Shown here: positions 7,191 through 31,382 of the stretch, one piece after another | Numbering within the stretch: the stretch's first letter is position 1 | How the letters are laid out: each line of letters starts with the position of its first letter | NCBI GenBank assembly: GCA_002952755.1 | Contig: CP025011.1 | Span: 1,080,001 to 1,112,000 of the forward strand | Reading direction: 5' to 3' | Length of the DNA stretch: 32,000 bases | DNA from: Candidatus Saccharimonadota bacterium | GTDB lineage: Bacteria; Patescibacteriota; Saccharimonadia; Saccharimonadales; UBA4665 | Notes under the pieces: model-generated | The model's input: the letters and a program-made list of their open reading frames with translations, nothing else | What the model was told of the DNA's origin: nothing | Databases searched by the model: none | Translations under genes and position numbers: made by a program

Positions 7191-7811
7191 ATGCAGTCAG
7201 GAGACACATCTCTCACCCGCACCCAGCTTGCCCGTCGCCAGGATATTCTCTCGGCAACCGTCAGAGTCATTAACCGTGACGGCTACCATGCGGCATCGGT
7301 TGAAAGAATCGCGAAAGACGCACACACCACAAAGAGCACGGTGTTGTACCACTTTAAATCCAAAGACGCTATCTATGCGGCGCTCGTGGGAACAATATTT
7401 GAGGATGGCGCCAAGTATATGGCACCCCAGATTCTGGCAGCCGGAAATTTTCGCGACAAATTGCGGGCATATATTGCCTCTAATCTGCAATATATCGCCG
7501 AACACGCTGATCGTATCGCCGCATTACATCAAATCGAAAAAAATAGTACCCGCGCCGCTTTCGAAGCCGGCTCAAATCGTATGCAAAACGACGCCCCGGT
7601 TCAGTGGCTCCAGCAGATGCTATGCGAAGGCCAGCAAGCAGGTGAGTTTGACACATTCGACCCCCTCACGCTTGCACTCGTTATTCGTTCCACAATCGAT
7701 AGCGCCTCATCTTACTTCGTTACCCATCCATCGTTCGACATTCCCACGCATATCCAGCAAGTTGTCGCCCTGTTCGACAAAATAGTAGCGCCTGTAGGGG
7801 GGAACCCATGA
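7191..7811 (+). CDS. TetR/AcrR family transcriptional regulator
   Basis: The N-terminal HTH ARRQDILSATVRVINRDGYHAASVERIAKDAHTTKSTVLYHFKSKDAIY is typical of the TetR_N domain. Length is about 200 aa. Confidence 0.85.
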   Translation: MQSGDTSLTRTQLARRQDILSATVRVINRDGYHAASVERIAKDAHTTKSTVLYHFKSKDAIYAALVGTIFEDGAKYMAPQILAAGNFRDKLRAYIASNLQYIAEHADRIAALHQIEKNSTRAAFEAGSNRMQNDAPVQWLQQMLCEGQQAGEFDTFDPLTLALVIRSTIDSASSYFVTHPSFDIPTHIQQVVALFDKIVAPVGGNP

Positions 7812-7867
7812 ACCGATAATGCTACTATTTATTCGACAACAATATAAACCCACAAGGAGGACCTAGC

Positions 7868-8290
7868 ATGACTAACACGACGAATGAAGCTCTACAAAAC
7901 CCGCATATCACTCAAGCATTCCGAACCCCAAAATTGCTTGTAAGCGGATATGTGGCTATCAGCTGGGGGGCAATTGTCGCACTTTTTCTGATGCGTAACC
8001 ATCACAACCTAGCTACGCAGGAAGCATGGGTCCATGGCTTCATCATCAGTGGCACAGCCTTACTGATGGCCTCATTTATGTGGCGGGCCGCCCGCGGCGA
8101 CCAAAATTCATTTTTGCGACTTCGCATCACGACGGCAATCTTGCTAGCCGCTATAATTGTTACCTCGGCGATTCCCGGCGACTTTCCGATGTGGATGAAG
8201 TTGGAACAGGGCGTCTGCGCAATCTTACTACTAGGAGTAGTCGTGCTTATCAACGGCAAACAGTTGCGATCCGTATTCGCATCTAAATAA
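7868..8290 (+). CDS. 4-TM membrane protein, unknown function
   Basis: AAGGAGG RBS lies 7 nt upstream. It has four hydrophobic helices and sits directly downstream of the TetR gene. Confidence 0.6.
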   Translation: MTNTTNEALQNPHITQAFRTPKLLVSGYVAISWGAIVALFLMRNHHNLATQEAWVHGFIISGTALLMASFMWRAARGDQNSFLRLRITTAILLAAIIVTSAIPGDFPMWMKLEQGVCAILLLGVVVLINGKQLRSVFASK

Positions 8291-8308
8291 AATAAACGGG
8301 AGACTTTT

Positions 8309-8764
8309 ATGGCTAAGCCATCACTACCCTTGGAGGCGTATTTTGACAAACTCATCAGGCATGATTTTCCAGCCCAATTACCGGCATGGTTCAGCAAGAT
8401 CATCGCCCGGTGGTCGTGGCTGATCATCGGGTTTGTGATTATTGTGCAGCCCTGGGTTGGCTGGGGATATTGGGATGAGGTGCATACGGCCATCGTCGAC
8501 CCTAATTTCTTCTTTTATCTGGCGTTCACCGTCTCCGGTTTCGAAGTATTTTTACAGCTTCTGGCGTTGTCCGATCTTGCACGTTTGAAGCGCCGGGGTT
8601 GGGAGTTGCTCTATTGCAGCGCTTTTCTCAATATCCTGTATGGAGTCGTGCGGATCTTCTCAAGCGAGGGTAGCATTGGGCCGCTCTTCGGCATGATCGT
8701 CTTATCAGCGATATTTTTCTATGTACTATTCCAAATTCGTCCGGAATTTACGCACCAAAAATAA
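8309..8764 (+). CDS. Membrane protein, unknown function
   Basis: GGGAG RBS upstream, 151 aa, four hydrophobic segments. Confidence 0.6.
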   Translation: MAKPSLPLEAYFDKLIRHDFPAQLPAWFSKIIARWSWLIIGFVIIVQPWVGWGYWDEVHTAIVDPNFFFYLAFTVSGFEVFLQLLALSDLARLKRRGWELLYCSAFLNILYGVVRIFSSEGSIGPLFGMIVLSAIFFYVLFQIRPEFTHQK

Positions 8765-8780
8765 CTAGGCAGGACTGTTC

Positions 8781-8822
8781 GAGCGGCCACAGGCTGTCTG
8801 GGGCCACTCGATTCCTGTTTTG
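8781..8822 (+). terminator. Candidate intrinsic terminator
   Basis: GAGCGGCC (8781-8788) pairs with GGCCACTC (8802-8809) with one mismatch. A T-rich tract (CTGTTTTGATTCAATTTT) follows. Confidence 0.45.
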
Positions 8823-8830
8823 ATTCAATT

Positions 8831-8860
8831 TTCGCATACTTTATAGCTATTACTTATAAT
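8831..8860 (+). promoter_or_regulatory. Promoter of the HIT gene (TTCGCA-18 nt-TATAAT), apparently leaderless
   Basis: TATAAT at 8855-8860 lies 7 nt before ATG 8868, with no SD. The -35 match is weak. Confidence 0.4.
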
Positions 8861-8867
8861 AATTACT

Positions 8868-9302
8868 ATGAACAGTAGTACAAGTCCGTGCGTCTTTTGC
8901 TCTATAGCTACACTCGAAGATCGAATTGTATATAGTGACGCTCTTCTATATGTACTCGTTCCTTCACACCCGGTCACGAGCGGGCATTTACTCGTTATCC
9001 CCGTTGCCCATCGATACACTTTCATTGATATCAATTTGGACGAACTCCGCCAGATGCAAACCATAATTGCTCATGTACTAGCTAGGAGTAAGAATCAAGG
9101 AGTAATCGGTTATAATTTACTATCTAATAATGGTGGTGCACTGGTTGACCAACATGTCGCCCATTTCCATCAGCATTGTTTTTTGAGGGACAGAAATGAG
9201 GGCAGCCCCTTTGAAAAATTACAAAATGGTCACAATATCACATCATCTTCATCGTTCAATATGACCGAGCACTGTCAAACCCTAAAAAGAAGATTTAATT
9301 AA
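8868..9302 (+). CDS. HIT (histidine triad) family nucleotide hydrolase/transferase, intact triad
   Basis: CVFC near the N-terminus, SGHLLVIPVAH, and the triad HVAHFHQHCF (HxHxHxx). 144 aa. Confidence 0.8.
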   Translation: MNSSTSPCVFCSIATLEDRIVYSDALLYVLVPSHPVTSGHLLVIPVAHRYTFIDINLDELRQMQTIIAHVLARSKNQGVIGYNLLSNNGGALVDQHVAHFHQHCFLRDRNEGSPFEKLQNGHNITSSSSFNMTEHCQTLKRRFN

Positions 9303-9317
9303 AATTGTAACTTGCGG

Positions 9318-10175
9318 CTATGCCGATTCTTGATCAATCATGCGACGTATTGCCTTTAACACTTCTCGCGTAATCGGTCCGCAACCATCAGATATAGTAA
9401 TATCATCTATTCGCGTGACAGGGTATGCAAGCAAGCTTGAGTTCGTTGCGAAACATTCGTCCATATCCTTAATATCAGATAGATGAATGAAGGTCTCGTT
9501 TACTGGAATATGCATGGCTTGTAGAGCCAATATCGCTTTTTGACGCATGATACCGCCGAGAACGTTATCAGTAGGCGCCGTCATTACAACACCAGATTTG
9601 ATGAAGAAGACATTATTAACGGCCGCCTCATAGACTGTGGGATCCTTTTCGGTGCCTATGAGCAATACGTCCATAATTCCCGTGTGCTTCAGTTTATTCC
9701 GCGCATAAAGGGAAGTTGTGTAATTAGTTGATTTTATCCTGGGCAATTGTCGTGGTGCTGAGAATGTCGCAAAAGCAACTCCTCGATCATATATGTCGGA
9801 GTCAATAGGTTTACAATAATTAATAATCAATATTAGTGAATTATCACGACCCGGAGATAAAGTATCTTCGCTAATACCCCCCGTAAGCAATACACGTACA
9901 TATATGTCCTGATCTGGATTCTTTTTGAGGGCATCTTCGAAAATATCCTCTAATTCTTTACGGGAGCACGGCATGGGAAGCTGAAATGCCTTTGCCGATT
10001 CAAAAAAACGATCCAAATGATCCTTGAGCCAAACAAAATTACGATTATGGCTGCGAACAAAATCAAAAACACCATAGCCTCTTAAAATGGTAAGATCAAA
10101 GACCGATAACGTTAGATCCTCGGCCTGAACCCAAGTCCCATTTATATAGTGGATATTTTCGTTATGTATTACCAT
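9318..10175 (-). CDS. PLP fold-type IV aminotransferase (branched-chain / D-amino-acid aminotransferase or ADC-lyase family)
   Basis: DLTILRGYGVFDF, YVRVLLTGG, a candidate catalytic Lys in PRIKSTNYTTSL, and EAAVNNVFFIKSG all match class IV aminotransferase landmarks. 285 aa. Confidence 0.75.
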   Translation of the reverse strand: MVIHNENIHYINGTWVQAEDLTLSVFDLTILRGYGVFDFVRSHNRNFVWLKDHLDRFFESAKAFQLPMPCSRKELEDIFEDALKKNPDQDIYVRVLLTGGISEDTLSPGRDNSLILIINYCKPIDSDIYDRGVAFATFSAPRQLPRIKSTNYTTSLYARNKLKHTGIMDVLLIGTEKDPTVYEAAVNNVFFIKSGVVMTAPTDNVLGGIMRQKAILALQAMHIPVNETFIHLSDIKDMDECFATNSSLLAYPVTRIDDITISDGCGPITREVLKAIRRMIDQESA

Positions 10176-10184
10176 ACGGATTAT

Positions 10185-10949
10185 TTAGATTTGCCGAGGG
10201 ACCTCTGTAAATATTGGTATGCTTGCCATAGGACGCCCACTATCATTCCATTGGCCTTGCAATCTTAGAACTTCTTCGTCACCCGTAACTATTGGTGTTT
10301 TTGGTGTAAAGTTGCCGTTTAAGTCATGGATTTGCATTCCAGGTATCCATAATTCAGGTGCGTTCCAGCCGATACGCCTAGTGAGATCTGGATTATGCGC
10401 GAGTAATGCCAGCAATTCAACACCAGGTGCCGTCGCACGATCTCGCACTAAAAAGGGTGCAGAGCCGTCGCCGACATAAGCATCAATATCTATTCTACTT
10501 GAGGTTATCTCCCCGGCTGGACGTGACAAAATCCTTTGCCCTTCATACAGATGACGCTCACTGTTCGCATGGAACGGAGTCCCTTTTGGAAGATTTTCAT
10601 CGATAGCCAGTAGCATCTTTCTAGAATCGCCATCTGGTACAAACGATGATTCTTGGTCGACCGTACCTTCGAAATTCCTCGCTACGATACTCCATAAGGC
10701 TTGCGCTGTCTTAGCGGTCGACGAGAGGTGGGGTGTAATTACTGTTACTGGCGTTTGACCCACCTCTTGATGATGCCTCTCCTCTAGAGCACGAATGGTG
10801 TCCGCATCAACATGTGTAGCCCTCTCTAAAAGACCCATGGGGACTAAACCGTCAGTAGCCCAAGCTCTAATATTCTCAAGTTGCTGGTCGACACTAATCG
10901 GCTCCCAATCATGAAGATCAGAAAAAGTTGCGTATTCCTCTATAGCCAT
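10185..10949 (-). CDS. Hypothetical protein (255 aa), possible N-terminal HTH
   Basis: The start at M47 of the track ORF (ATG 10947-10949) follows a TTGACT-17-GATAGT promoter by 7 nt. The longer start would overlap the divergent gene. LVPMGLLERATHVDADTIRALEER loosely resembles an XRE-type HTH. It contains no Cys and I recognise no enzyme motif. Confidence 0.5.
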   Translation of the reverse strand: MAIEEYATFSDLHDWEPISVDQQLENIRAWATDGLVPMGLLERATHVDADTIRALEERHHQEVGQTPVTVITPHLSSTAKTAQALWSIVARNFEGTVDQESSFVPDGDSRKMLLAIDENLPKGTPFHANSERHLYEGQRILSRPAGEITSSRIDIDAYVGDGSAPFLVRDRATAPGVELLALLAHNPDLTRRIGWNAPELWIPGMQIHDLNGNFTPKTPIVTGDEEVLRLQGQWNDSGRPMASIPIFTEVPRQI

Positions 10950-10956
10950 GCAGGCT

Positions 10957-10985
10957 ACTATCGCAAAGCGCTTTAGCTTAGTCAA
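10957..10985 (-). promoter_or_regulatory. Promoter of the minus-strand operon (TTGACT-17 nt-GATAGT)
   Basis: On the - strand, TTGACT is at 10985-10980, followed by a 17-nt spacer and GATAGT at 10962-10957. The ATG is 7 nt downstream, so the transcript looks leaderless. Confidence 0.5.
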
Positions 10986-11136
10986 GCAGTTACTTGTGGA
11001 TAAAGTGCCGGAAAGAGATGTAGTTGGACTGGCTTGTGCCGGGGTTGAAAGGTGTAATGTTTCTGTTCCGATTCGGCGTAGGAACATCCTTCATTTTGGA
11101 GTAGTATTGTCTTTAGCAAAAATTGAAGGCAGTAAT

Positions 11137-13383
11137 ATGACTGAATCTTTTCGCGATCAAATGCTTTCCGGGCAATCCGAAGTGTATGCGGATTTGCAAT
11201 CTATTTGGAATCAGAAACGAGGTCGGCCACCGATTGACACAGAACCCCAATTCTCTTTAGCGGTATGTTTGGCAAGTCCACAATTTGCCGTTGATGACTT
11301 TGCAGATAATATGGTTTCCCATCTAGCCAATACAGATCCAGAGACTATGTATCGTTGGTCTAAGGAATGGGGCCAAGCACGCATTGCACTCGCGCCCGGT
11401 CAAGATCGCTTTGTGATGGTGGATACTCAAGGAGAGGATTCAAAGAGGTATTCGCCCATCTTCACGCGGGCGAAATGTCGTCCCTCTGAAATGATGGCCG
11501 CTAAAAGGGAGTTGGTAGAAAATGCGATTACTATAGTTATCAACGATGACGAGCCGGTCAGTATGGAAGGGGCAGTTTTACAAGTTGAACGTATGGTCGA
11601 TGAAGCTGTATGGACAATATGCAATGGCATACAAGAAACAGAACAGGTACCTGGAGCGGCTGCATATAGTCGAGCGGTAGAATACGTGCAAAAAAGAGGT
11701 CTAAACATTGCATATGCAACAGCCAATACTATTCTAGATTTAAAATCGAGCCTCCCTGATGCCCCAGTTCGTCTCTACGGAGACATTCATAAGCAAAGCA
11801 CAGTGCCTCCCATTATTGGGATTATTCTATACGGTGGTTTGCCTGTTGGTGCGGAGATCAAGTACCCTAAAGCTCAATCAGATAAAGAGGCCATTCAATC
11901 AGACTGCCTAGAAAATCATTCTATTATCGAGCTCGCCGATTCAGAGGATATTGTCGCTAACCTATCGATTACTTTAGGTAAGCGATTACATGCAGGCCAC
12001 CTGTTTATGTTTGTAAAAGCATGGTCGGCATTGAGAGGCAGCGATCGTGCAAGCATGTGTGTTGAGTTTAATGATACCGGGCCGCAGATAGATGCCATGC
12101 TCGAAGTAGCAGCAAGCGAGACAGGAAAAAGTGTCGAGTTTGTAGCTGCCGCCATATCGGCAGGCTACTATGCATTAAAAGAGGTAGAAAGCTGGTATGG
12201 ACGGCGCAATAAAGATCCCGTTGGCATGTATTATGTTCCGCGCGCAGAACCACTACTGTCCATGAGCACTCAAGCCGAAGAAATGCACCGACTACTGCAA
12301 TCTACATTCCCTAATATACCTATGCGCACCTACACAAGTAGCACTACCGATTATTCGCACGTATTATCTCATTCTGATTATAGTTGGCGATCTACAGGGT
12401 TCGAAGTTATGGATGGCCACGTTCTAGCTAAGAGGGGAGGGACTACGGCTCTACTCGCTAGGATGGGTTTTCTTGACAGGGTAGCGAGGGAGAATCCCGA
12501 ATCAAAACTAGTATATATAGACTCTTCGCCAACTATTGCTACGGCTACGCGATTGTCTGAACGTATCATCGGGTATAAGCCAGAGATAGTAAAAGGGGCT
12601 GCACTGGGGTTTGATTTTGATATTCATTCTGGATCATCGCCACGGGACGATATTACCATTGCTCAATTTCTGGATTGGTATCATCAAGAGGTAAACGACG
12701 ATGAGGAGCAGCTCGCACTTGATCTAGAGTATATGATGACCTTTATGCCATTGGCATGTCCGAAGGATGATCCGGAAGCATTCTATAACTTTGCCAATCT
12801 TGAGGGTTTGAGGCGAGCAATTGCAGTCAGTCATAGCGAAAGACTAGGTTTTCTAAAAGATATTGCAACATGTGCTTTTCCAGTTCTCCCAAATGATGAA
12901 GGAATAGCCTTTCGGGAAGGAGCGCCAAAAGCTGAACGAGTGGCGATAAAGAAGATTCTGCGTTCGGCACTTGGACAGTTAAAAAACCAACATCCCCATG
13001 TTTATAAAGCAAGAGACCTTGATTTTGCATTCATCCCTCCGGGGTATCTTCATGAAGAGCTCACTTATTTAGCTAGTGGAAATCTTTTGGCTGGTGAATC
13101 AATAAGTATAGATGCCCCTACTGGTGTTGCCATTGACCCGACCTTGATTAAATTGTTACAAGCACAAGGCTACACATCCATAGATAAATTACAGCATGCC
13201 GCTCACTTGATGCTAGCCAGAGACATCTCCTTTCAGTTCCAGCTGACACCTTACCAACTACTGTTCAAAAATCTAGTTAGCATCGTGACACACGTATCGG
13301 CCTTAGGTACCGCATACCAACGGGCATACGAATTCTTGAAAAGGTCCAGGTTATGGGAGGTACCTAATCATCATGAAGTATAG
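11137..13383 (+). CDS. Atypical arginyl-tRNA synthetase-like class I aaRS homologue with about 270-aa unknown N-terminal region
   Basis: LGKRLHAGHLF aligns to the ArgRS HIGH region (AKEMHVGHLR in E. coli, from memory). VEFNDTGPQIDAML aligns to NHVGDWGTQFGML. LVYIDSSPTIATATRLSERIIGY aligns to the YVVDxxQxxHF...ARKAGY block. The start at ATG 11137 is preceded by GAAGG. Confidence 0.5.
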   Translation: MTESFRDQMLSGQSEVYADLQSIWNQKRGRPPIDTEPQFSLAVCLASPQFAVDDFADNMVSHLANTDPETMYRWSKEWGQARIALAPGQDRFVMVDTQGEDSKRYSPIFTRAKCRPSEMMAAKRELVENAITIVINDDEPVSMEGAVLQVERMVDEAVWTICNGIQETEQVPGAAAYSRAVEYVQKRGLNIAYATANTILDLKSSLPDAPVRLYGDIHKQSTVPPIIGIILYGGLPVGAEIKYPKAQSDKEAIQSDCLENHSIIELADSEDIVANLSITLGKRLHAGHLFMFVKAWSALRGSDRASMCVEFNDTGPQIDAMLEVAASETGKSVEFVAAAISAGYYALKEVESWYGRRNKDPVGMYYVPRAEPLLSMSTQAEEMHRLLQSTFPNIPMRTYTSSTTDYSHVLSHSDYSWRSTGFEVMDGHVLAKRGGTTALLARMGFLDRVARENPESKLVYIDSSPTIATATRLSERIIGYKPEIVKGAALGFDFDIHSGSSPRDDITIAQFLDWYHQEVNDDEEQLALDLEYMMTFMPLACPKDDPEAFYNFANLEGLRRAIAVSHSERLGFLKDIATCAFPVLPNDEGIAFREGAPKAERVAIKKILRSALGQLKNQHPHVYKARDLDFAFIPPGYLHEELTYLASGNLLAGESISIDAPTGVAIDPTLIKLLQAQGYTSIDKLQHAAHLMLARDISFQFQLTPYQLLFKNLVSIVTHVSALGTAYQRAYEFLKRSRLWEVPNHHEV

Positions 13384-14773
13384 AAATATTGTGCTCGTTG
13401 GCGGTTCGGGCTTCTGGAGTGACCAGAATCATATAATGAGCATTCTTGAAGTTGGCCCACGCAATAGGGCGCGAATTGGTGCGATTATAGACCCTGTTAA
13501 TCCGGCAATCGTAACCAAGCATATAAATTTGCAGCAATTGCTCAATAGGGACCATCCCCAGTGGTTAGATCCTCGTAGGTATACAAATATGAAGGAGCTC
13601 TTTGGACACCTAGAGCAAACGCCCGACCTGGTTATAGTAGCTTGCAACCCGGAGGCCCATTTGGAATATGCCAGCTTCTGCATTTCACAGGGTATAAACG
13701 TTTTGATAGATAAGCCGATCAACGTAGTTGCAAATGCGTCGAGCGACCTGCTTAGCGCTCGACAGATATACAAAGATTTCTCCAAACTCCTGGCATTGCA
13801 GCAGCGAGTTCAAGAACCACACCTTGCGGTAACACTCCTTCGCAGAAGAACACTGAAGCCTTTCCGACATATCATTAGGGAAGTTGCAGACTGCTACCAA
13901 CGAACAAGGCAGGGCATCACTCAAATTAACATTATCGTCAATGGTGGCATTCATAAATTTCCATCCGAATTCTTTTCTACACCTGGTGCCCACGGCTATC
14001 TTATGGGCGTTGGCTCCTTATCCCATTCGGCCTATCATTATATTGATGTTGTCACATGGCTACTCCAAAGCGCGCCCGGGGATGTCCGCTATTTACGCGT
14101 AAGTCTTGCCTGCGTCAAAAGGATTGCCGACTACATTAAGACCGGTGGATATAGTGCGCTACAGCAGCTTTTAGATCTGCCGGATACTCTTATTCAATCA
14201 CCCGAACCAATACCGCAAACTATTTTAGATGCTGAGCTAGATTCGAGTTTTACAATTGAAATGTTAGATAGTAACCAAGCAGTTATTGGACATATCAATT
14301 TTGTTTTTTGTCATACTACCTTTACTTCTAGAACAAGGACTATCGAAGTGGGAGACGATCATGCAAATTACCCAAACGGTGGCCGTATGTCACACATATA
14401 TCTCGATGTCCAGCAAGGATCTTTACAAAGTTGGCAGTTAGAAAAAAACGACATTGTTTTTCAGGGTAATACTATCAGGTTAAGTGGCAGGGTTCACCCC
14501 TACTACGGTCGTCCGCAAATATATTCTAAAGTATATGAGGCCGCCTATGAAAATACCGAAAGGCCCTTGAGCATACTCCTTGAAGATGTTTTATCAATGA
14601 CAGATAACACCCACCCAACAGTCAATTCAAATCAATACATTAAAGATATAAAATCAGAAACACTGAATATGCGACTCTTCAGCACATTTTATGAGCTACT
14701 AGCCATGAATAAGGTGGCCGGGCTCCAGAAAACAATCAGTCTCGATGTAGGTTCTTTATTGACAGAACACTAA
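13373..14773 (+). CDS. Gfo/Idh/MocA-like NAD(P)-dependent oxidoreductase (long form, 466 aa)
   Basis: N-terminal Rossmann segment NIVLVGGSGFWSDQNH, then PDLVIVACNPEAHLEYASFCISQGINVLIDKP (family motif EKP, here DKP), then GVGSLSHSAYHYIDVVTWLL. Its start overlaps the stop of the upstream gene by 11 nt. Confidence 0.6.
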   Translation: MKYRNIVLVGGSGFWSDQNHIMSILEVGPRNRARIGAIIDPVNPAIVTKHINLQQLLNRDHPQWLDPRRYTNMKELFGHLEQTPDLVIVACNPEAHLEYASFCISQGINVLIDKPINVVANASSDLLSARQIYKDFSKLLALQQRVQEPHLAVTLLRRRTLKPFRHIIREVADCYQRTRQGITQINIIVNGGIHKFPSEFFSTPGAHGYLMGVGSLSHSAYHYIDVVTWLLQSAPGDVRYLRVSLACVKRIADYIKTGGYSALQQLLDLPDTLIQSPEPIPQTILDAELDSSFTIEMLDSNQAVIGHINFVFCHTTFTSRTRTIEVGDDHANYPNGGRMSHIYLDVQQGSLQSWQLEKNDIVFQGNTIRLSGRVHPYYGRPQIYSKVYEAAYENTERPLSILLEDVLSMTDNTHPTVNSNQYIKDIKSETLNMRLFSTFYELLAMNKVAGLQKTISLDVGSLLTEH

Positions 14774-14980
14774 GGCAGTGTGCCAATCTTTACGACCGTC
14801 AACGGGCCTTTTGCGGGTTAAGATTGAGGTCGAAGGGCCATACTCAGCCTAACGAGTGATTCTGTAACTCGCTTCATCTTTAGTGTATTAAATATACTTC
14901 GTCCAAACGACGGGACGCATTGTTGACCGCGCAGCGCCCCCTCGATTGTAAGAATGCGTAGCGTCGGTTATGATAATTTT

Positions 14981-15400
14981 ATGTCATCTCACAATAATTC
15001 AGAGCAAGAACCAAATCCCGGAGTTGCTTACGGCAATGTAGTTGTAAGACGCCTACCACGTAGCGGGTTTTATAGAGTGTACGAAGCAGGCGCGCCAAAG
15101 GACGAGGACCCACACGCCCAGGTGTATCTTACTAATTACACTAGGGACAGTGAAGACATGGTGCGATTTAGCGTACCTGCAATAAACCAAATCCGTCCTG
15201 GCGACATTTTAGAAAAGCTTTGTAAAGTTGACGTTACAGTTGACGTAGGAGTACCAGAATCTCACACTCAGGCTACCCTAGAGGAGCTCGCTGCACTAGC
15301 AGGAGCGACTGCGTTTGAGGCCGCGAGGGTGGCTGGCACTTTCCCTCCGAGGCCTTTGGCTTTGGAGTCTAGTCAGATCCTTCTTACGCCACCGGCCTAG
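14981..15400 (+). CDS. Hypothetical protein (139 aa)
   Basis: I chose ATG 14981 because TTGTAA (14946-14951), a 17-nt spacer and TATGAT (14969-14974) precede it by 6 nt. No motif recognised. Confidence 0.45.
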   Translation: MSSHNNSEQEPNPGVAYGNVVVRRLPRSGFYRVYEAGAPKDEDPHAQVYLTNYTRDSEDMVRFSVPAINQIRPGDILEKLCKVDVTVDVGVPESHTQATLEELAALAGATAFEAARVAGTFPPRPLALESSQILLTPPA

Positions 15401-27200: not shown

Positions 27201-28031
27201 TTATGCAGCGCCTTTGTGGGTAAACAACACGCGCAGTATACCGCCCATCACTAGTACACAGCCGGTTAGCAGAACAGGCACAAAACCAGTGCGCGTTCGA
27301 TCATCTAAAAAGAGCAAACCTAAAATCGTAGGTACAAGCGTCTGAGCTGCGACCATCGCTGCGTTAATGATCGTGGCCGAACCTCGTTGCAAGGCCATCG
27401 TAAAAAGCAGGATGCCGATCAGCGCATACACCGCCAGAGCGACAGCAGTTGGAGTGTATACTACATGCCAATAGGGGCGGGGGATACTAAGTACCCGGCC
27501 ACAAATCGACGTGCCGCCGAACCCTAAGCCACTGAGCAAAGCCAGCCCAATCGTAGCTTTGCTGCTCCGTATGCGCACTAGAAAGAGCGCGGCAAGCGCT
27601 AAGACGATTGGGCCGCCTACGACCACCCAAGTCATGACGACCGTCAGACTTGGACCCGGCGAAGGCTGCGCAGCTGCTCCCAAGAGTGTTAGGCCAGTGA
27701 GCACCAAGCCCACCGCCCAGTAGGTTTGACTACGCATACGATGTTTAAGCACAAACCGGTCAATGAGCGCCGTCGCCACCACACTCGACGCGATTACGGA
27801 TTGCGCCAGAAAAAGTGGCAACGTTCGCACGGCGAATAACTCGCTGGCGCCACCGATGAGATCCAACACAATACTAAAAAAATAGAGCTCATTTTGTATC
27901 AAGCGCACTAATAACCCGAGACTAAGTGAGGGGGCCTGTTTTTCACGGCTGGCGGTCATTTTCTGCAAAATCGTTGCCACACTGTTGCACAGCGCGCAAA
28001 GAAAAGCTGCGGCTAAAGCAGGATAAAACAT
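27201..28031 (-). CDS. DMT-superfamily (EamA/NIPA-like) membrane transporter
   Basis: About nine or ten hydrophobic helices. I chose the start at M13 of the track ORF (MFYPALAAAF...); the first 12 codons look non-native. The family call is by topology and general resemblance. Confidence 0.5.
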   Translation of the reverse strand: MFYPALAAAFLCALCNSVATILQKMTASREKQAPSLSLGLLVRLIQNELYFFSIVLDLIGGASELFAVRTLPLFLAQSVIASSVVATALIDRFVLKHRMRSQTYWAVGLVLTGLTLLGAAAQPSPGPSLTVVMTWVVVGGPIVLALAALFLVRIRSSKATIGLALLSGLGFGGTSICGRVLSIPRPYWHVVYTPTAVALAVYALIGILLFTMALQRGSATIINAAMVAAQTLVPTILGLLFLDDRTRTGFVPVLLTGCVLVMGGILRVLFTHKGAA

Positions 28032-28111
28032 CTCTTTGTAGTGTAACAGAGAAGCACAAGCGCACATGCTTCAAAAAGCACCCAAAGGATCCCGCATGCT
28101 ACACTAAGCAC

Positions 28112-29143
28112 ATGCTTCGCACGCTTACTGCCGCCTTTCTTTTAGCTGTGATGCCCAGCAGCAGTAACTATGTATTACATTCCTATGATTTCGGCAACGG
28201 GTCTGGGACAGCAAGTGGTACAACCTACAAAATGAACGGCACGGTTGGACGACCGTCCGGTGCGCTCAGTAGCGCGACATATATGCTGCCGGCTGGCATT
28301 AAGGCGTCCACCTCTGTATCAGCACCGGCCGCGCCGACATTCATAAACGCGAGCAACAACTACGACCGTTTACACCTTACACTCGCCACTAGCTCACTCC
28401 CCAGTGATACGAAATATTTGATAGCCATTAGTAGCGATGGCTTTGCCACAGCTAAGTACGTACAAACGGACAACACTATTGGCAGCGTAGTCAATATCAA
28501 CAATTACCAAGTGTATGCGGCGTGGGGCGGTGCAAGTGGTTTTTCTATACTCGGCTTAGCCAGCAACACTACCTATAGCGTCAAAGTTGCCGCGCTACAG
28601 GGAAGTAACACCGGCAGTGGCTTTGGACCAATTGCCAGCGCCGCCACCGTGTCGCCAACCGTCACGTTGGCGCTTTCCACCTCGCTCACTAGTACACCAC
28701 CATTCACCACTACTTTTAGCAGCTTGGCCCCAGGCACGCCAATAAACGGGAATGCCACACTTATTGCTGCCATCACCACGAACGCTATAAATGGAGGAGC
28801 GTTGGCGATATATGATCAATTTGGCGGACTCAAGAGTACGGCCGCCAATTACACATTGGCCTCGGCCAGCGCCAACTTATCTGTGGCGCAAAATGGTTAC
28901 GGGGCGCAAGTGACCACGGCTACGCAAACCAGTGGTGGGCCAATAGTTTCGGCAAGCCCCTATAATGGCTCAGGCAATACTGTTGGTGCGCTCACCACCA
29001 GTCAACAAACGCTCGCATCATTTAGTAATCCTATTACCAATGGAAATATTACGACGGCATTAATTGCTAAAACAGATAGTTCCGTGCCATCAGCGGGCGA
29101 TTATGCCGACACCGTAACGCTCTCTCTGTCGCCCCTCTTTTAG
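28112..29143 (+). CDS. Secreted surface protein: signal peptide, FN3-like module, C-terminal beta-rich domain (paralogue of 29229-30287)
   Basis: The start at M63 of the track ORF (MLRTLTAAFLLAVMP...) lies 6 nt after TACACT. LGLASNTTYSVKVAAL looks like the end of an FN3 module. TTNAINGG...GLKSTAANYTLAS and the terminal GDYADTVTLSLSPLF are shared with the next protein. Confidence 0.55.
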   Translation: MLRTLTAAFLLAVMPSSSNYVLHSYDFGNGSGTASGTTYKMNGTVGRPSGALSSATYMLPAGIKASTSVSAPAAPTFINASNNYDRLHLTLATSSLPSDTKYLIAISSDGFATAKYVQTDNTIGSVVNINNYQVYAAWGGASGFSILGLASNTTYSVKVAALQGSNTGSGFGPIASAATVSPTVTLALSTSLTSTPPFTTTFSSLAPGTPINGNATLIAAITTNAINGGALAIYDQFGGLKSTAANYTLASASANLSVAQNGYGAQVTTATQTSGGPIVSASPYNGSGNTVGALTTSQQTLASFSNPITNGNITTALIAKTDSSVPSAGDYADTVTLSLSPLF

Positions 29144-29228
29144 TTCAGTTTTATTTAATATGGCACTTGCTTTTGTTCGTAAAAGCCTCCATACTACGCG
29201 CATACATAAGCAACATCAGGGGGATTAG

Positions 29229-30287
29229 ATGTTACGCACAATTAGACAACAAAATACGATAAAAAAGGTGAGCTTTTACTCCCTTTCTGCACTGCTTGCC
29301 TTCTCGGCTGTTGCTTTGGTGATTCAGCCTGAAGCGGCACATGCGGTAACGCTGAATAAAGTGCTCGTCCGTTTCGACCGCTTGCAGATTTCGCAAGGCA
29401 CCACTGGCACTGTTTGTGCGCAGCCTACCTCAACTGCAACCGAAGCAAGTGTGCAAGTTGTCTTCCCAACAGGTTACACGCTCGGGGCAGCTGGCACATT
29501 CACAGTAAACACAACCAACTTGAACTGGCCAACGGGCGGGACAGCCTGGACAGGAATCGGCACCGCGAATAACGTCACTTCGCAAACTGTTACATTCCCC
29601 AGCGGCGATCTTGCCAGCACGAGCACGCTTTACTGTTTTAACTGGACAAACACGGCTGCAGTAACCGTTAAGTCGAGCGCTACCAGCAGTAATGCCGGTA
29701 CGGTTACAACCCAAACCAGCGTACCAGCGCCCATAGATACTGGCTCCTATAGCACCGTGAGCTTGGCCAGCGACCAGATTGGCGTCTCGGCTTCTGTACC
29801 CCAGGCATTCACTTTTGCCCTTAGCAGTACAACCGACACGCTTGGTGCACTTTCAACGTCGAGCGTCGTCAGCAGCAGCTCTGCACCGACTATAACGGTT
29901 AATACCAACGCCAAGAATGGCTGGACGGCTTGGGGGCAGGATGCCAACACTGGCTTAAAATCGGTAAGCGCTGGCAACTACACCATCGCCTCAAAAACCC
30001 CAGGCACTAATAGCACGCTCGTTGCAGGGACCGAATTCGCTAACCTTGGTGTAACCACTTCACAAACCGGCGGCACCGGCACGCTGGCTGCCGACGCTGC
30101 ATTCCTTGGCGGCGGCACCGGCAAAGGTGGCGGCCTTGACACGACACTCCGCACCATCGCCAGCTCAAACGGCACTGCCAATAACGCTGTTTTGACGCTT
30201 ACCAATAACGCTGTCGTCAGCGCCACCACTCCCGCAGCCACCGATTATAGTGATACCATCACCATGGTCGGCGCGGCATTGTTTTAG
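29229..30287 (+). CDS. Secreted surface protein, paralogous C-terminal domain (WxL-like?)
   Basis: GGGGGA RBS. The signal peptide ends AAHA/V. NTNAKNGWTAW...GLKSVSAGNYTIAS and the terminal TDYSDTITMVGAALF parallel the previous protein. Confidence 0.55.
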   Translation: MLRTIRQQNTIKKVSFYSLSALLAFSAVALVIQPEAAHAVTLNKVLVRFDRLQISQGTTGTVCAQPTSTATEASVQVVFPTGYTLGAAGTFTVNTTNLNWPTGGTAWTGIGTANNVTSQTVTFPSGDLASTSTLYCFNWTNTAAVTVKSSATSSNAGTVTTQTSVPAPIDTGSYSTVSLASDQIGVSASVPQAFTFALSSTTDTLGALSTSSVVSSSSAPTITVNTNAKNGWTAWGQDANTGLKSVSAGNYTIASKTPGTNSTLVAGTEFANLGVTTSQTGGTGTLAADAAFLGGGTGKGGGLDTTLRTIASSNGTANNAVLTLTNNAVVSATTPAATDYSDTITMVGAALF

Positions 30288-30329
30288 GGCGAACCCCTAA
30301 AGTACTTCAAATCATAAGAGAGCAGTGTA

Positions 30330-31382
30330 ATGTCCAACCATGTTTCACAATGGTTGCGTATGGGTGGTGTATGGCTATTAGGAGTTTTAGCCATACTCTA
30401 CTCGTTCTACCCGGCAACGGCTCAAGCAACAGGCAGTGATTTTAATATACAGGTGGCGCCTTCGCCCCTCACAATCACACTCACACCTGGTCAAATGCAG
30501 AGCACCAGCCTGGTAGTGCGTAACTTTTCCAGCCACGACGAAACGCTTCGGCCCAGTCTAAGCGGTTTTCGTATTGATAGTGTTAGCCAGAAGATTACCC
30601 TCTTGAGCGCTCCGCCGGCCAATATGGCTAACTGGGTACACTTTAAACAGTCGGACCTAACGCTGGCACCAGGCACCGGCAAAAACCTAGATATCATTTT
30701 TGACACCCCAAAGGATGTCGGCTTTAGTTACGCAGCCGCCATTACGCTTACTCGCGCCAACACAGTCGCGAGGGCCGATGCAACCAACCTGAGAGGGGCA
30801 GTAGCAGTGTTTTGCCTTGCCAACATTAATCGTCCGGACGCCAAAAGCGCAGTAGCCATCACTAGTCTGAGCTCAGATAAATCATCCTACGAATTCCTAC
30901 CTGCAACATTTCATCTTAGCTTAAAGAATACCGGCAACGTGATTAGCCAACCTACCGGAACTATCTTCATACAGCGCTCATTTTCTGATGCGACGCCAAT
31001 TGCCTCGCTGCCCATTAACAGCACCGGCGGTTACGTTCTACCCGATACAACCCGCAGTTTTTCGTCAAGTTGGCAAAATGGTTTTCCAGCGTATGTTGCC
31101 AACCCGGCGCTTTCGGGCCAATCGGCCACTAATCACTTAAATTGGAACTGGTCTCATCTCAGCCAGCTCCGCTTTGGGCGTTATGTTGCGAAAGCAGTCA
31201 TCATATACAACGATGGGCATAGCGACGTGCCCGTGATTGCCAGCACATCATTTTGGGTGATTCCATGGCGCCTTATAGGGTTCGGGCTGCTGCTGCTCAT
31301 CGTCTTAGGCACCGGCCTTTACGCATGGGGTCGTTTCGCCTTTAAAAGCGTGCAGAAAGTGCAACGTCGTGGGCATAAATAA
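30330..31382 (+). CDS. Cell-surface protein, DUF916/DUF3324-like, with C-terminal TM anchor
   Basis: A signal peptide, then DFNIQVAPSPLTITLTPGQMQSTSLVVRNFS (the pattern of the DUF916 N-terminus), a second Ig-like half, and the C-terminal WRLIGFGLLLLIVLGTGLYAW plus a basic tail. Confidence 0.55.
   Translation: MSNHVSQWLRMGGVWLLGVLAILYSFYPATAQATGSDFNIQVAPSPLTITLTPGQMQSTSLVVRNFSSHDETLRPSLSGFRIDSVSQKITLLSAPPANMANWVHFKQSDLTLAPGTGKNLDIIFDTPKDVGFSYAAAITLTRANTVARADATNLRGAVAVFCLANINRPDAKSAVAITSLSSDKSSYEFLPATFHLSLKNTGNVISQPTGTIFIQRSFSDATPIASLPINSTGGYVLPDTTRSFSSSWQNGFPAYVANPALSGQSATNHLNWNWSHLSQLRFGRYVAKAVIIYNDGHSDVPVIASTSFWVIPWRLIGFGLLLLIVLGTGLYAWGRFAFKSVQKVQRRGHK

Follow-up and report, generated by a model that had tools for sequence, protein, structure and literature searches.

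Among the 32,000 nucleotides (nt) analysed here, from a Candidatus Saccharimonadota bacterium (assembly GCA_002952755.1, contig CP025011.1, positions 1,080,001 to 1,112,000; hereafter the window), lies an AT-rich island of five genes. They encode a HIT protein, a class IV aminotransferase, a 255-aa protein without family match, a large protein with the fold of arginyl-tRNA synthetase (ArgRS), and a protein resembling the Gfo/Idh/MocA oxidoreductases at its N-terminus (GFO-like). With a probability of roughly 0.5, on the strength of sequence comparison, a predicted structure and analogy with characterized enzymes, we read the island as a horizontally acquired variant of a previously undescribed accessory cassette, in which a HIT protein would work with an ArgRS-fold, putatively adenylate-forming enzyme. 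Such a cassette most likely belongs to an accessory small-molecule pathway and not to translation. The fold of the large protein, the conservation of its motifs, the rarity of its family, the linkage of the genes, their co-evolution and the anomalous composition of the island are demonstrated in the following sections.

The large protein and its likeness to ArgRS

Sequence searches assign the large protein to no described family. It has no match in Pfam, NCBIfam or PADLOC, and the best hit of a phmmer search of the PDB is an unrelated protein with an E-value of 1; the best PDB profile match to an ArgRS has E=0.1. A word-indexed search of 5.8 billion clusters returned a single distant homologue (31% identity), and a HMMER profile search of 1.84 billion representatives returned 113 proteins at E<1e-3 (48 of them at E<1e-30), mostly of 700-800 aa. 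Named carriers are Ca. Komeilibacteria (locus L006) and Ca. Shapirobacteria (L008, via P0170). None of 60 family members tested has a meaningful Pfam match. Neither in these nor in the window protein was there a match at E<=0.01 to PF00750 (tRNA-synt_1d) or the NCBIfam argS model, or any Pfam match to PF03485 (Add1) or PF05746 (DALR).

Structure prediction followed by Foldseek, which an earlier note made from the sequence alone had proposed as a check on the N-terminus of this protein, puts ArgRS on top. For an AlphaFold model built from the 60-sequence alignment (pLDDT 86.4, pTM 0.87), the first 13 PDB matches (E=2.8e-8 to 1.1e-5, probability 1.0) are all ArgRSs, of bacterial, archaeal, yeast and human origin, and MetRS, GluRS, CysRS and TyrRS come after them; giant-virus and phage ArgRSs head the matches in the BFVD. 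The family profile was also aligned by hhalign with E. coli ArgRS (residues 122-397 aligned, E=4e-5). Four landmarks are collinear between the two: K-x-x-H-x-G-H, which aligns to K126...H129-V-G-H132 of E. coli (AKxxHxGH in ArgRS), N-D-x-G (N..D.G.(Q/R) in its wider form), Y-I-D-S ((Y)-x-D-S in its wider form), and a Gly/Ser loop that replaces KMSKS. The corresponding motifs of the window protein are K282-R-L-H285-A-G-H288 (nt 11980-12000), N312-D-T-G-P-Q, Y460-I-D462-S and the S498-G499 loop, and they are kept across the family: in the 60 sequences, K282 and H288 are present in all, H285, G287 and D462 in 59 each, N312 in 58 and S498 in 57. Because of the Foldseek matches and the collinear motifs, the label ArgRS-like, given by eye in the earlier note, is correct as to fold and catalytic signature. 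The model confirms it, although every sequence-based hidden Markov model (HMM) fails to recognize it.

In other respects the family is unlike ArgRS. The place of Add1 is taken by an unrelated domain of ~235 aa, which is the best-conserved part of the family, with W74, W78, W159, R212, Y214, G215, P224 and G228 invariant. A profile search found no relative of this domain in the PDB, and hhalign against E. coli ArgRS gave a probability of <=0.2%. It is also encoded alone, as proteins of ~210-240 aa, and core-only proteins of ~470 aa are seen as well. The C-terminal region has a mean identity of 15%, compared with 22-25% in the other domains; it is poorly conserved apart from G678-Y679, and neither hhalign with ArgRS nor a search with PF05746 gave a match, so that no DALR domain is recognisable. 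Furthermore, this is a rare, accessory family, accompanied by a HIT partner in every informative locus.

The arginine pocket is not conserved either. In E. coli ArgRS, arginine is recognized by D118, N123, Y313, D317 and Q341, positions that we checked on the E. coli sequence and mapped to the family by hhalign. In this mapping a hydrophobic residue (V, I, A or L) stands at the D118 position, Thr takes the place of N123 in 50 of the 60 sequences, the Q341 equivalent is variable, and the D317 region has Ala or Arg depending on the register. Judged from its sequence, the large protein is most likely not the ArgRS that serves translation in this cell; a canonical ArgRS of the candidate phyla radiation (CPR) is readily recognised by Pfam (L023).

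The earlier note had also considered a self-resistance role, in which the large protein would be a second or antibiotic-resistant ArgRS protecting the cell from an inhibitor made by the neighbouring genes. The ArgRS fold agrees with this, and aminoacyl-tRNA synthetase (aaRS) genes in biosynthetic clusters often confer immunity. However, the cluster-encoded ArgRS variants that protect against tiarin trifolitoxin remain near-canonical and recognisable (10.64898/2025.12.02.691738), whereas the large protein has only 10-15% identity to ArgRS, matches no ArgRS HMM, has lost the equivalents of D118, N123 and Q341 together with Add1, and carries an additional conserved domain that also occurs as a separate protein. 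The rarity and divergence of the family therefore argue against a housekeeping or an immunity ArgRS, and the divergence and the altered pocket against any arginine-specific enzyme. The comparison with the tiarin immunity enzymes and the loss of arginine-binding residues led us to reject this explanation, which is now hardly credible.

The HIT partner and gene linkage across related loci

Members of the large-protein family were found in 13 further loci, 12 of them distinct (L010 and L011 are the same sequence). Leaving out three that are cut by contig ends, the loci informative for the HIT gene are the window, L005, L006, L008, L009, L010/11, L012, L014, L015 and L022, and in all ten a HIT gene lies within 3 kb of the large-protein gene. 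An APH-like kinase of one homologous subfamily is present in L006, L008, L010, L012, L014, L015, L021 and L022; in L022 the genes for the large protein, the kinase and the HIT protein overlap in a compact operon that is surrounded by housekeeping genes. Further genes appear in more distant CPR loci, for a small radical SAM enzyme resembling NrdG and viperin, a phosphatase (His_Phos_1) and a P-loop protein resembling 6PF2K. The conserved unit is thus a pair of HIT and ArgRS-fold genes, usually with an APH-type kinase, and not the five-gene set that the earlier note had proposed. From that set the HIT, GFO-like and 255-aa proteins do recur with the large protein, so that four of the five island genes are found together in other genomes, but the aminotransferase is not among them.

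The window HIT protein matches PF01230 (E=3.4e-11, 44.1 bits against a cut-off of 21.5), has an intact H-x-H-x-H triad (HFHQHCF) and carries an N-terminal CxxC. It does not reach the HinT equivalog models (NF045834, 36 bits against 130; PRK10687, 18.6 against 206). The full triad is present in nine of ten HIT proteins compared, that of L014 having Gln for the first His, and all ten share a C-terminal motif, R-x(3-5)-(S/N)-P-(F/Y/L). Pairwise similarities among the HIT proteins are correlated with those among their large-protein partners (Mantel r=0.75, p=2e-4). By these sequence comparisons, the HIT protein is a dedicated and co-evolving partner of the ArgRS-fold enzyme. The HIT protein of L010 (6172-6981, the same as L011 12569-13378) is 269 aa long, with a fused C-terminal extension of ~150 aa.

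The GFO-like protein matches PF01408 at its N-terminus (E=1.4e-7, 32.7 bits against a cut-off of 24), where GGSGFW and DKP are present. Its C-terminal ~300 residues match no Pfam C-terminal domain, and PDB profile similarity is confined to residues ~56-150. The family comprises at least 90 clusters, mostly from Patescibacteria. The gene lies 3' of the large-protein gene in the window, L008, L015 and L021, and in L015 the two overlap by 11 nt as they do here. The L015 gene (10204-11646) is split in two open reading frames (ORFs) that match the window protein with E=8e-54 and 4e-39, through a frameshift, a pseudogene or an assembly error. Elsewhere, GFO-like genes stand beside Ldh_2, His_Phos_1, APH and a CYTH-like gene in L025/L026; at L025 5004-10596, on a CPR-type contig, the GFO-like gene directly adjoins the Ldh_2-family dehydrogenase and the His_Phos_1 phosphatase. 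A further member, in Micromonospora peucetia (L020, 8843-13098), lies in a nonribosomal peptide synthetase (C-PCP), B12-radical-SAM and NovG cluster, again with Ldh_2 and His_Phos_1. The recurrence of these three suggests a conserved sub-module for the synthesis of a building block. In L017 (3584-9494) and L023 (4112-10672), GFO-like genes accompany a TPP-dependent enzyme with a partner of ~222 aa, a NUDIX hydrolase and SHMT; in L023 the canonical ArgRS gene is 7 kb away from this context.

The 255-aa protein has no match in Pfam, NCBIfam, PADLOC or the PDB, including a PDB profile search. It contains the conserved motifs HNP, WxPGxQxHD and WNDSG. A phmmer search finds a homologue in L015 (E=2e-34, 42% identity in the aligned part), where its gene likewise stands next to that of the large protein and diverges from it.

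The aminotransferase is a clear member of PF01063 (E=5e-47, 161 bits against a cut-off of 28.5) with the catalytic-Lys motif RIKSTNY. It falls below the cut-off of all 18 models for IlvE, D-amino-acid aminotransferase and PabC (best NCBIfam score 168 bits against 363). Its closest relative (51% identity) is truncated (171 aa) and directly follows the HIT gene in L018/L019. That locus (7489-8516) has a HIT gene and the truncated aminotransferase gene and no gene for an ArgRS-fold protein, and may be what is left of a related cassette after decay.

In the explanation that we favour, the invariant core consists of the ArgRS-fold enzyme of ~750 aa, with its novel N-terminal domain, and a HIT nucleotide hydrolase or transferase. 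Since the ATP signature is kept and the arginine-recognition residues are lost, the enzyme would form an acyl-adenylate from ATP and a carboxylate substrate that is not arginine, and would then ligate this substrate to an acceptor in the manner of MshC. The HIT protein may hydrolyse or transfer an AMP-linked intermediate or by-product, for proofreading, turnover or self-protection. In the window, the GFO-like dehydrogenase and the class IV aminotransferase would supply an amine or keto partner or modify it, and the 255-aa protein would be a further component of the pathway; in other loci, tailoring of the acceptor would fall to the kinase and the phosphatase. The chemistry of every step, the class of substrate and the independence from tRNA are inferred here, largely by analogy. 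The logic of pairing a dehydrogenase with an aminotransferase, which the earlier note had invoked, would draw on this single locus and on one adjacency of HIT and aminotransferase genes elsewhere; it does not extend to the other loci of the family.

A different explanation gives the ArgRS-fold protein an RNA substrate, tRNA or another, on which it would carry out a non-canonical aminoacylation or a tRNA modification like that of GluQRS (YadB), with the kinase and the HIT protein processing RNA ends or adenylated intermediates. The closest fold is indeed that of ArgRS, an enzyme that strictly requires tRNA to activate its amino acid, and the Foldseek alignments span 505-608 columns (ArgRS chains have ~450-660 residues), a length at which a helical C-terminal domain could still be present. 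Some HIT enzymes, those of the aprataxin and DcpS kinds, have adenylated or capped nucleic acids as substrates, and the window HIT protein shows a weak match to DcpS_C; moreover, the L022 operon lies amid the translation and RNA genes nusA, infB and truB. Against this stand the weak conservation of the C-terminal region, its lack of sequence similarity to DALR, the absence of Add1, and partners (dehydrogenase, aminotransferase, APH kinase, phosphatase, radical SAM) that look like enzymes of small-molecule metabolism. We consider an RNA substrate unlikely.

The cassette might instead serve in conflict or in defence against phages, through the synthesis or breakdown of a modified nucleotide. A nucleotide analogue, the product of radical SAM proteins, kinases and the phosphatase, would receive an aminoacyl or adenylyl group from the ArgRS-fold enzyme, and the HIT protein would give immunity as MccH does in the case of microcin C. 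Among PADLOC models, ThsC2 gives a generic match to the window HIT protein (E=1e-10 to 1e-12), and the radical SAM neighbours are weakly viperin-like (pVip, E=4e-10; NF038283, 36 bits). Helicase, methyltransferase, terminase, KAP NTPase or restriction genes occur near some loci (L006, L016, L025), and the cassette is patchy, mobile and compositionally foreign. However, the large, 255-aa and GFO-like proteins and the aminotransferase have no PADLOC match, and the other matches are generic and far below cut-offs. The family was not found in viral contigs, nor in phage or plasmid collections (tblastn), L022 lies amid housekeeping genes, and the window variant has neither a radical SAM nor a kinase gene. 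A role in conflict is therefore, in our estimate, quite unlikely. In L006 (2671-8927), terminase-like, ParB-like/methyltransferase, UvrD-like helicase and Abi-like genes precede the cassette, which there lies in a region resembling a prophage or a defence island.

Layout, edges and composition of the island

The coordinates of the island genes and of the features at its edges are given in Table 1.

Table 1. Features of the island, of the large protein and of the flanking DNA (positions within the window)
Feature	Positions	Strand	Size or residues	Remarks
HIT gene	8868-9302	+	144 aa	ORF intact
Class IV aminotransferase gene	9318-10175	-	285 aa	ORF intact
Gene for protein without family match	10185-10952	-	255 aa	First gene of the minus-strand arm
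Gene for large ArgRS-fold protein	11137-13383	+	748 aa	
Gfo/Idh/MocA-like (GFO-like) gene	13373-14773	+	466 aa	
Divergent intergenic control region	10953-11136	.	184 nt	Between the two arms; sequence read
N-terminal domain of large protein	11137-11841	+	Residues 1-235	Family alignment; model pLDDT >90 over most
ArgRS-type class I Rossmann core	11947-12756	+	Residues 271-540	Foldseek, hhalign, motifs
C-terminal, mostly helical region	12757-13383	+	Residues 541-748	Secondary structure of model
Hairpin with U-rich tail	8767-8820	+		Likely intrinsic terminator of 8309-8764; left island edge
Sigma-70-like promoter match	8831-8860	+	TTCGCA-18-TATAAT, 10/12	Consensus scan; just 5' of HIT gene
ORF without family match	14954-15400	+	148 aa	Directly right of island; membership uncertain

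The gene coordinates agree with those of the earlier note, as do the gap of 15 nt between the convergent HIT and aminotransferase genes, the gap of 9 nt between the aminotransferase and 255-aa genes, and the 11-nt overlap through which the GFO-like gene is translationally coupled to the large-protein gene. The divergent spacer measures 184 nt, and not 187 bp as the note had it. Gene callers differ on the starts of the two flanking genes: the large protein is called with 748, 795 or 811 aa (longest 10948-13383, + strand), and its minus-strand neighbour with 254 or 300 aa (longest 10185-11087). The long versions of the two genes would overlap. For the large protein, the start at 11137, giving 748 aa, has the support of the family alignment.

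At the left edge, the terminator-like hairpin seen in the earlier note has a folding energy of -27.5 kcal/mol (z = -3.2), which none of 200 shuffled sequences equals, and a U-rich tail; it is plausibly the terminator of the upstream membrane-protein gene. The promoter match 5' of the HIT gene is weak evidence, because a promoter and terminator scan of the region gave counts not above the shuffled expectation. Immediately to the left of the island (7191-8764), a gene for a TetR-family regulator (7191-7811) and two small ORFs for hydrophobic proteins (140 and 151 aa), neither with a family match, have host-like composition.

The island is AT-richer than its surroundings, more sharply so than the hand counts in the earlier note had suggested. 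Its G+C content is 0.440, compared with 0.501 in the rest of the 32 kb, its edges are sharp, and the lowest-GC segment of 5943 bp in the whole 32 kb begins at 8801. The anomaly in third codon positions is confined to the five genes. Their GC3 is 0.37-0.42, lower in every one than in any of 25 other genes (0.43-0.60), and the contrast of 0.39 with 0.53 has a Mann-Whitney p of 1.4e-5; GC1 and GC2 do not differ significantly between island and non-island genes. Large-protein genes are AT-richer than their surroundings in other genomes also (L005, G+C 0.40 against 0.49; L022, 0.39 against 0.44), which is consistent with spread from low-GC donors.

To the right of the island, the 148-aa ORF has a GC3 of 0.43, the lowest among the non-island genes. 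It has no family match in Pfam, NCBIfam or PADLOC and no homologue in the related loci, and the acquired segment may in fact end here. At a greater distance (27926-31382), three successive ORFs (405, 352 and 350 aa) without Pfam match have a GC2 (0.48-0.59) equal to or higher than GC1, an inverted order that suggests proteins of low complexity or unusual composition, or mis-called frames.

Several results weigh against reading the island as an acquired variant of an accessory cassette of this kind. Horizontal acquisition, as proposed in the earlier note, agrees with the composition, but the usual marks of mobility are missing: a tRNA scan found no tRNA gene in the window (an Rfam scan of the window was also empty), no repeats that might be attachment sites bound the island, and no integrase or transposase is among the annotated window ORFs. 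The structural matches to ArgRS have low TM-scores (0.26-0.38), and the hhalign probability is just 54-70%. Because ArgRS needs tRNA for activation, the large protein may also have a tRNA-dependent function. GFO-like genes occur in unrelated contexts without the large protein as well. In 11 other loci of the large-protein family no homologue of the aminotransferase was found, so that its part in a pathway is argued from shared composition, tight spacing and the single adjacency to a HIT gene elsewhere. Nor is there a remnant of the APH kinase in the 32-kb window, and the window variant may therefore be incomplete or rewired; remnants of radical SAM, His-phosphatase and Ldh_2 genes are likewise absent from the window. 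Finally, two motif residues that are almost invariant in the family are altered in the window protein, which could mean changed function or relaxed constraint. Residue 317 (nt 12085-12087) is Q in the window protein, the only one in 60, where the others have a near-invariant R, and at residues 502-503 (nt 12640-12645), where 51 of 60 have Gly, it has P and a one-residue insertion. Very few members of the family have the latter combination.

The uniqueness of the aminotransferase, the missing kinase and the two altered positions would also be expected if the five genes had arrived together without a joint function, or if the island were a decaying remnant of a kinase-containing cassette, and decay is seen elsewhere, in the split GFO-like gene of L015 and the truncated aminotransferase of L018. 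However, all five island ORFs are intact and keep their catalytic motifs, the 9-nt gap and the 11-nt overlap are operon-like, and four of the five genes recur together in other genomes. We regard this explanation as very unlikely.

Relation to known systems and significance

Among characterized enzymes, MshC is the analogy that we favour for the function of the large protein. MshC, the cysteine ligase of mycothiol synthesis, is a paralogue of CysRS that transfers the aminoacyl group of its adenylate to the amine of a sugar-like acceptor, and not to tRNA. It is, however, clearly CysRS-like in sequence and has neither a HIT partner nor an additional N-terminal domain, and there are no mycothiol genes here. 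GluQRS, too, is a paralogue of a class I aaRS that works outside translation, a truncated GluRS that keeps the HIGH site and glutamylates queuosine in tRNA-Asp. It is, however, recognisably GluRS in sequence, lacks an anticodon-binding domain and acts on tRNA, and we found no evidence of a tRNA target for the large protein.

For the HIT protein, the comparison is with Hint, which hydrolyses lysyl-AMP, with Fhit, and with MccH, which confers immunity to processed microcin C. The intact triad and the linkage to a putative adenylate-forming enzyme are shared with these, and by analogy the window protein may hydrolyse an acyl-AMP or a phosphoramidate. It differs in scoring below the equivalog cut-offs and in having its own C-terminal motif, and the window contains no MccB-like, peptide-precursor or transporter genes. 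The gene sets for aminocyclitols and amino sugars (streptidine, WbpB/WbpE) resemble the cassette in the GFO-like, APH and His_Phos_1 genes found across the loci and in the aminotransferase of the window. However, this aminotransferase is of fold-type IV and not of the DegT/StsC type, the GFO-like protein shares just the NAD-binding segment, and no cyclitol synthase or glycosyltransferase is linked.

The earlier note knew of no described system with this gene set, and we found none in the literature, nor a family of ArgRS paralogues, nor a system combining a HIT protein, an aaRS-like protein and a kinase. To our knowledge, no ArgRS-derived paralogue family has been described. Few aaRS paralogues have been recruited to other chemistry (MshC, GluQRS, the cyclodipeptide synthases and the amino-acid:carrier-protein ligases), and each has so far been informative. 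We place the cassette with such accessory enzymes of aaRS origin, although the probability that it is a distinct new system is considerable. More specifically, and tentatively, at somewhat less than even odds, the HIT and ArgRS-fold pair with its novel N-terminal domain and frequent APH kinase would be a new aaRS-derived system that makes an AMP-linked or aminoacylated small molecule or nucleotide, has spread by horizontal transfer among the ultrasmall CPR bacteria and now and then beyond them, and includes the first non-translational descendant of ArgRS. The product may be, for example, an antimetabolite, a signalling compound or a cofactor-like molecule.

The family is invisible to Pfam and NCBIfam, and yet it combines an intact ATP site with a remodelled substrate pocket, a new and separable domain and a HIT partner; a by-eye call of ArgRS-like from a HIGH-type motif can thus be right where HMMs fail. 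The gene content of CPR bacteria is largely uncharacterised. The HIT protein and the ArgRS-fold enzyme make a clean two-protein system for testing, which could reveal a new adenylate chemistry, a new role for HIT proteins and an accessory metabolism in these bacteria.

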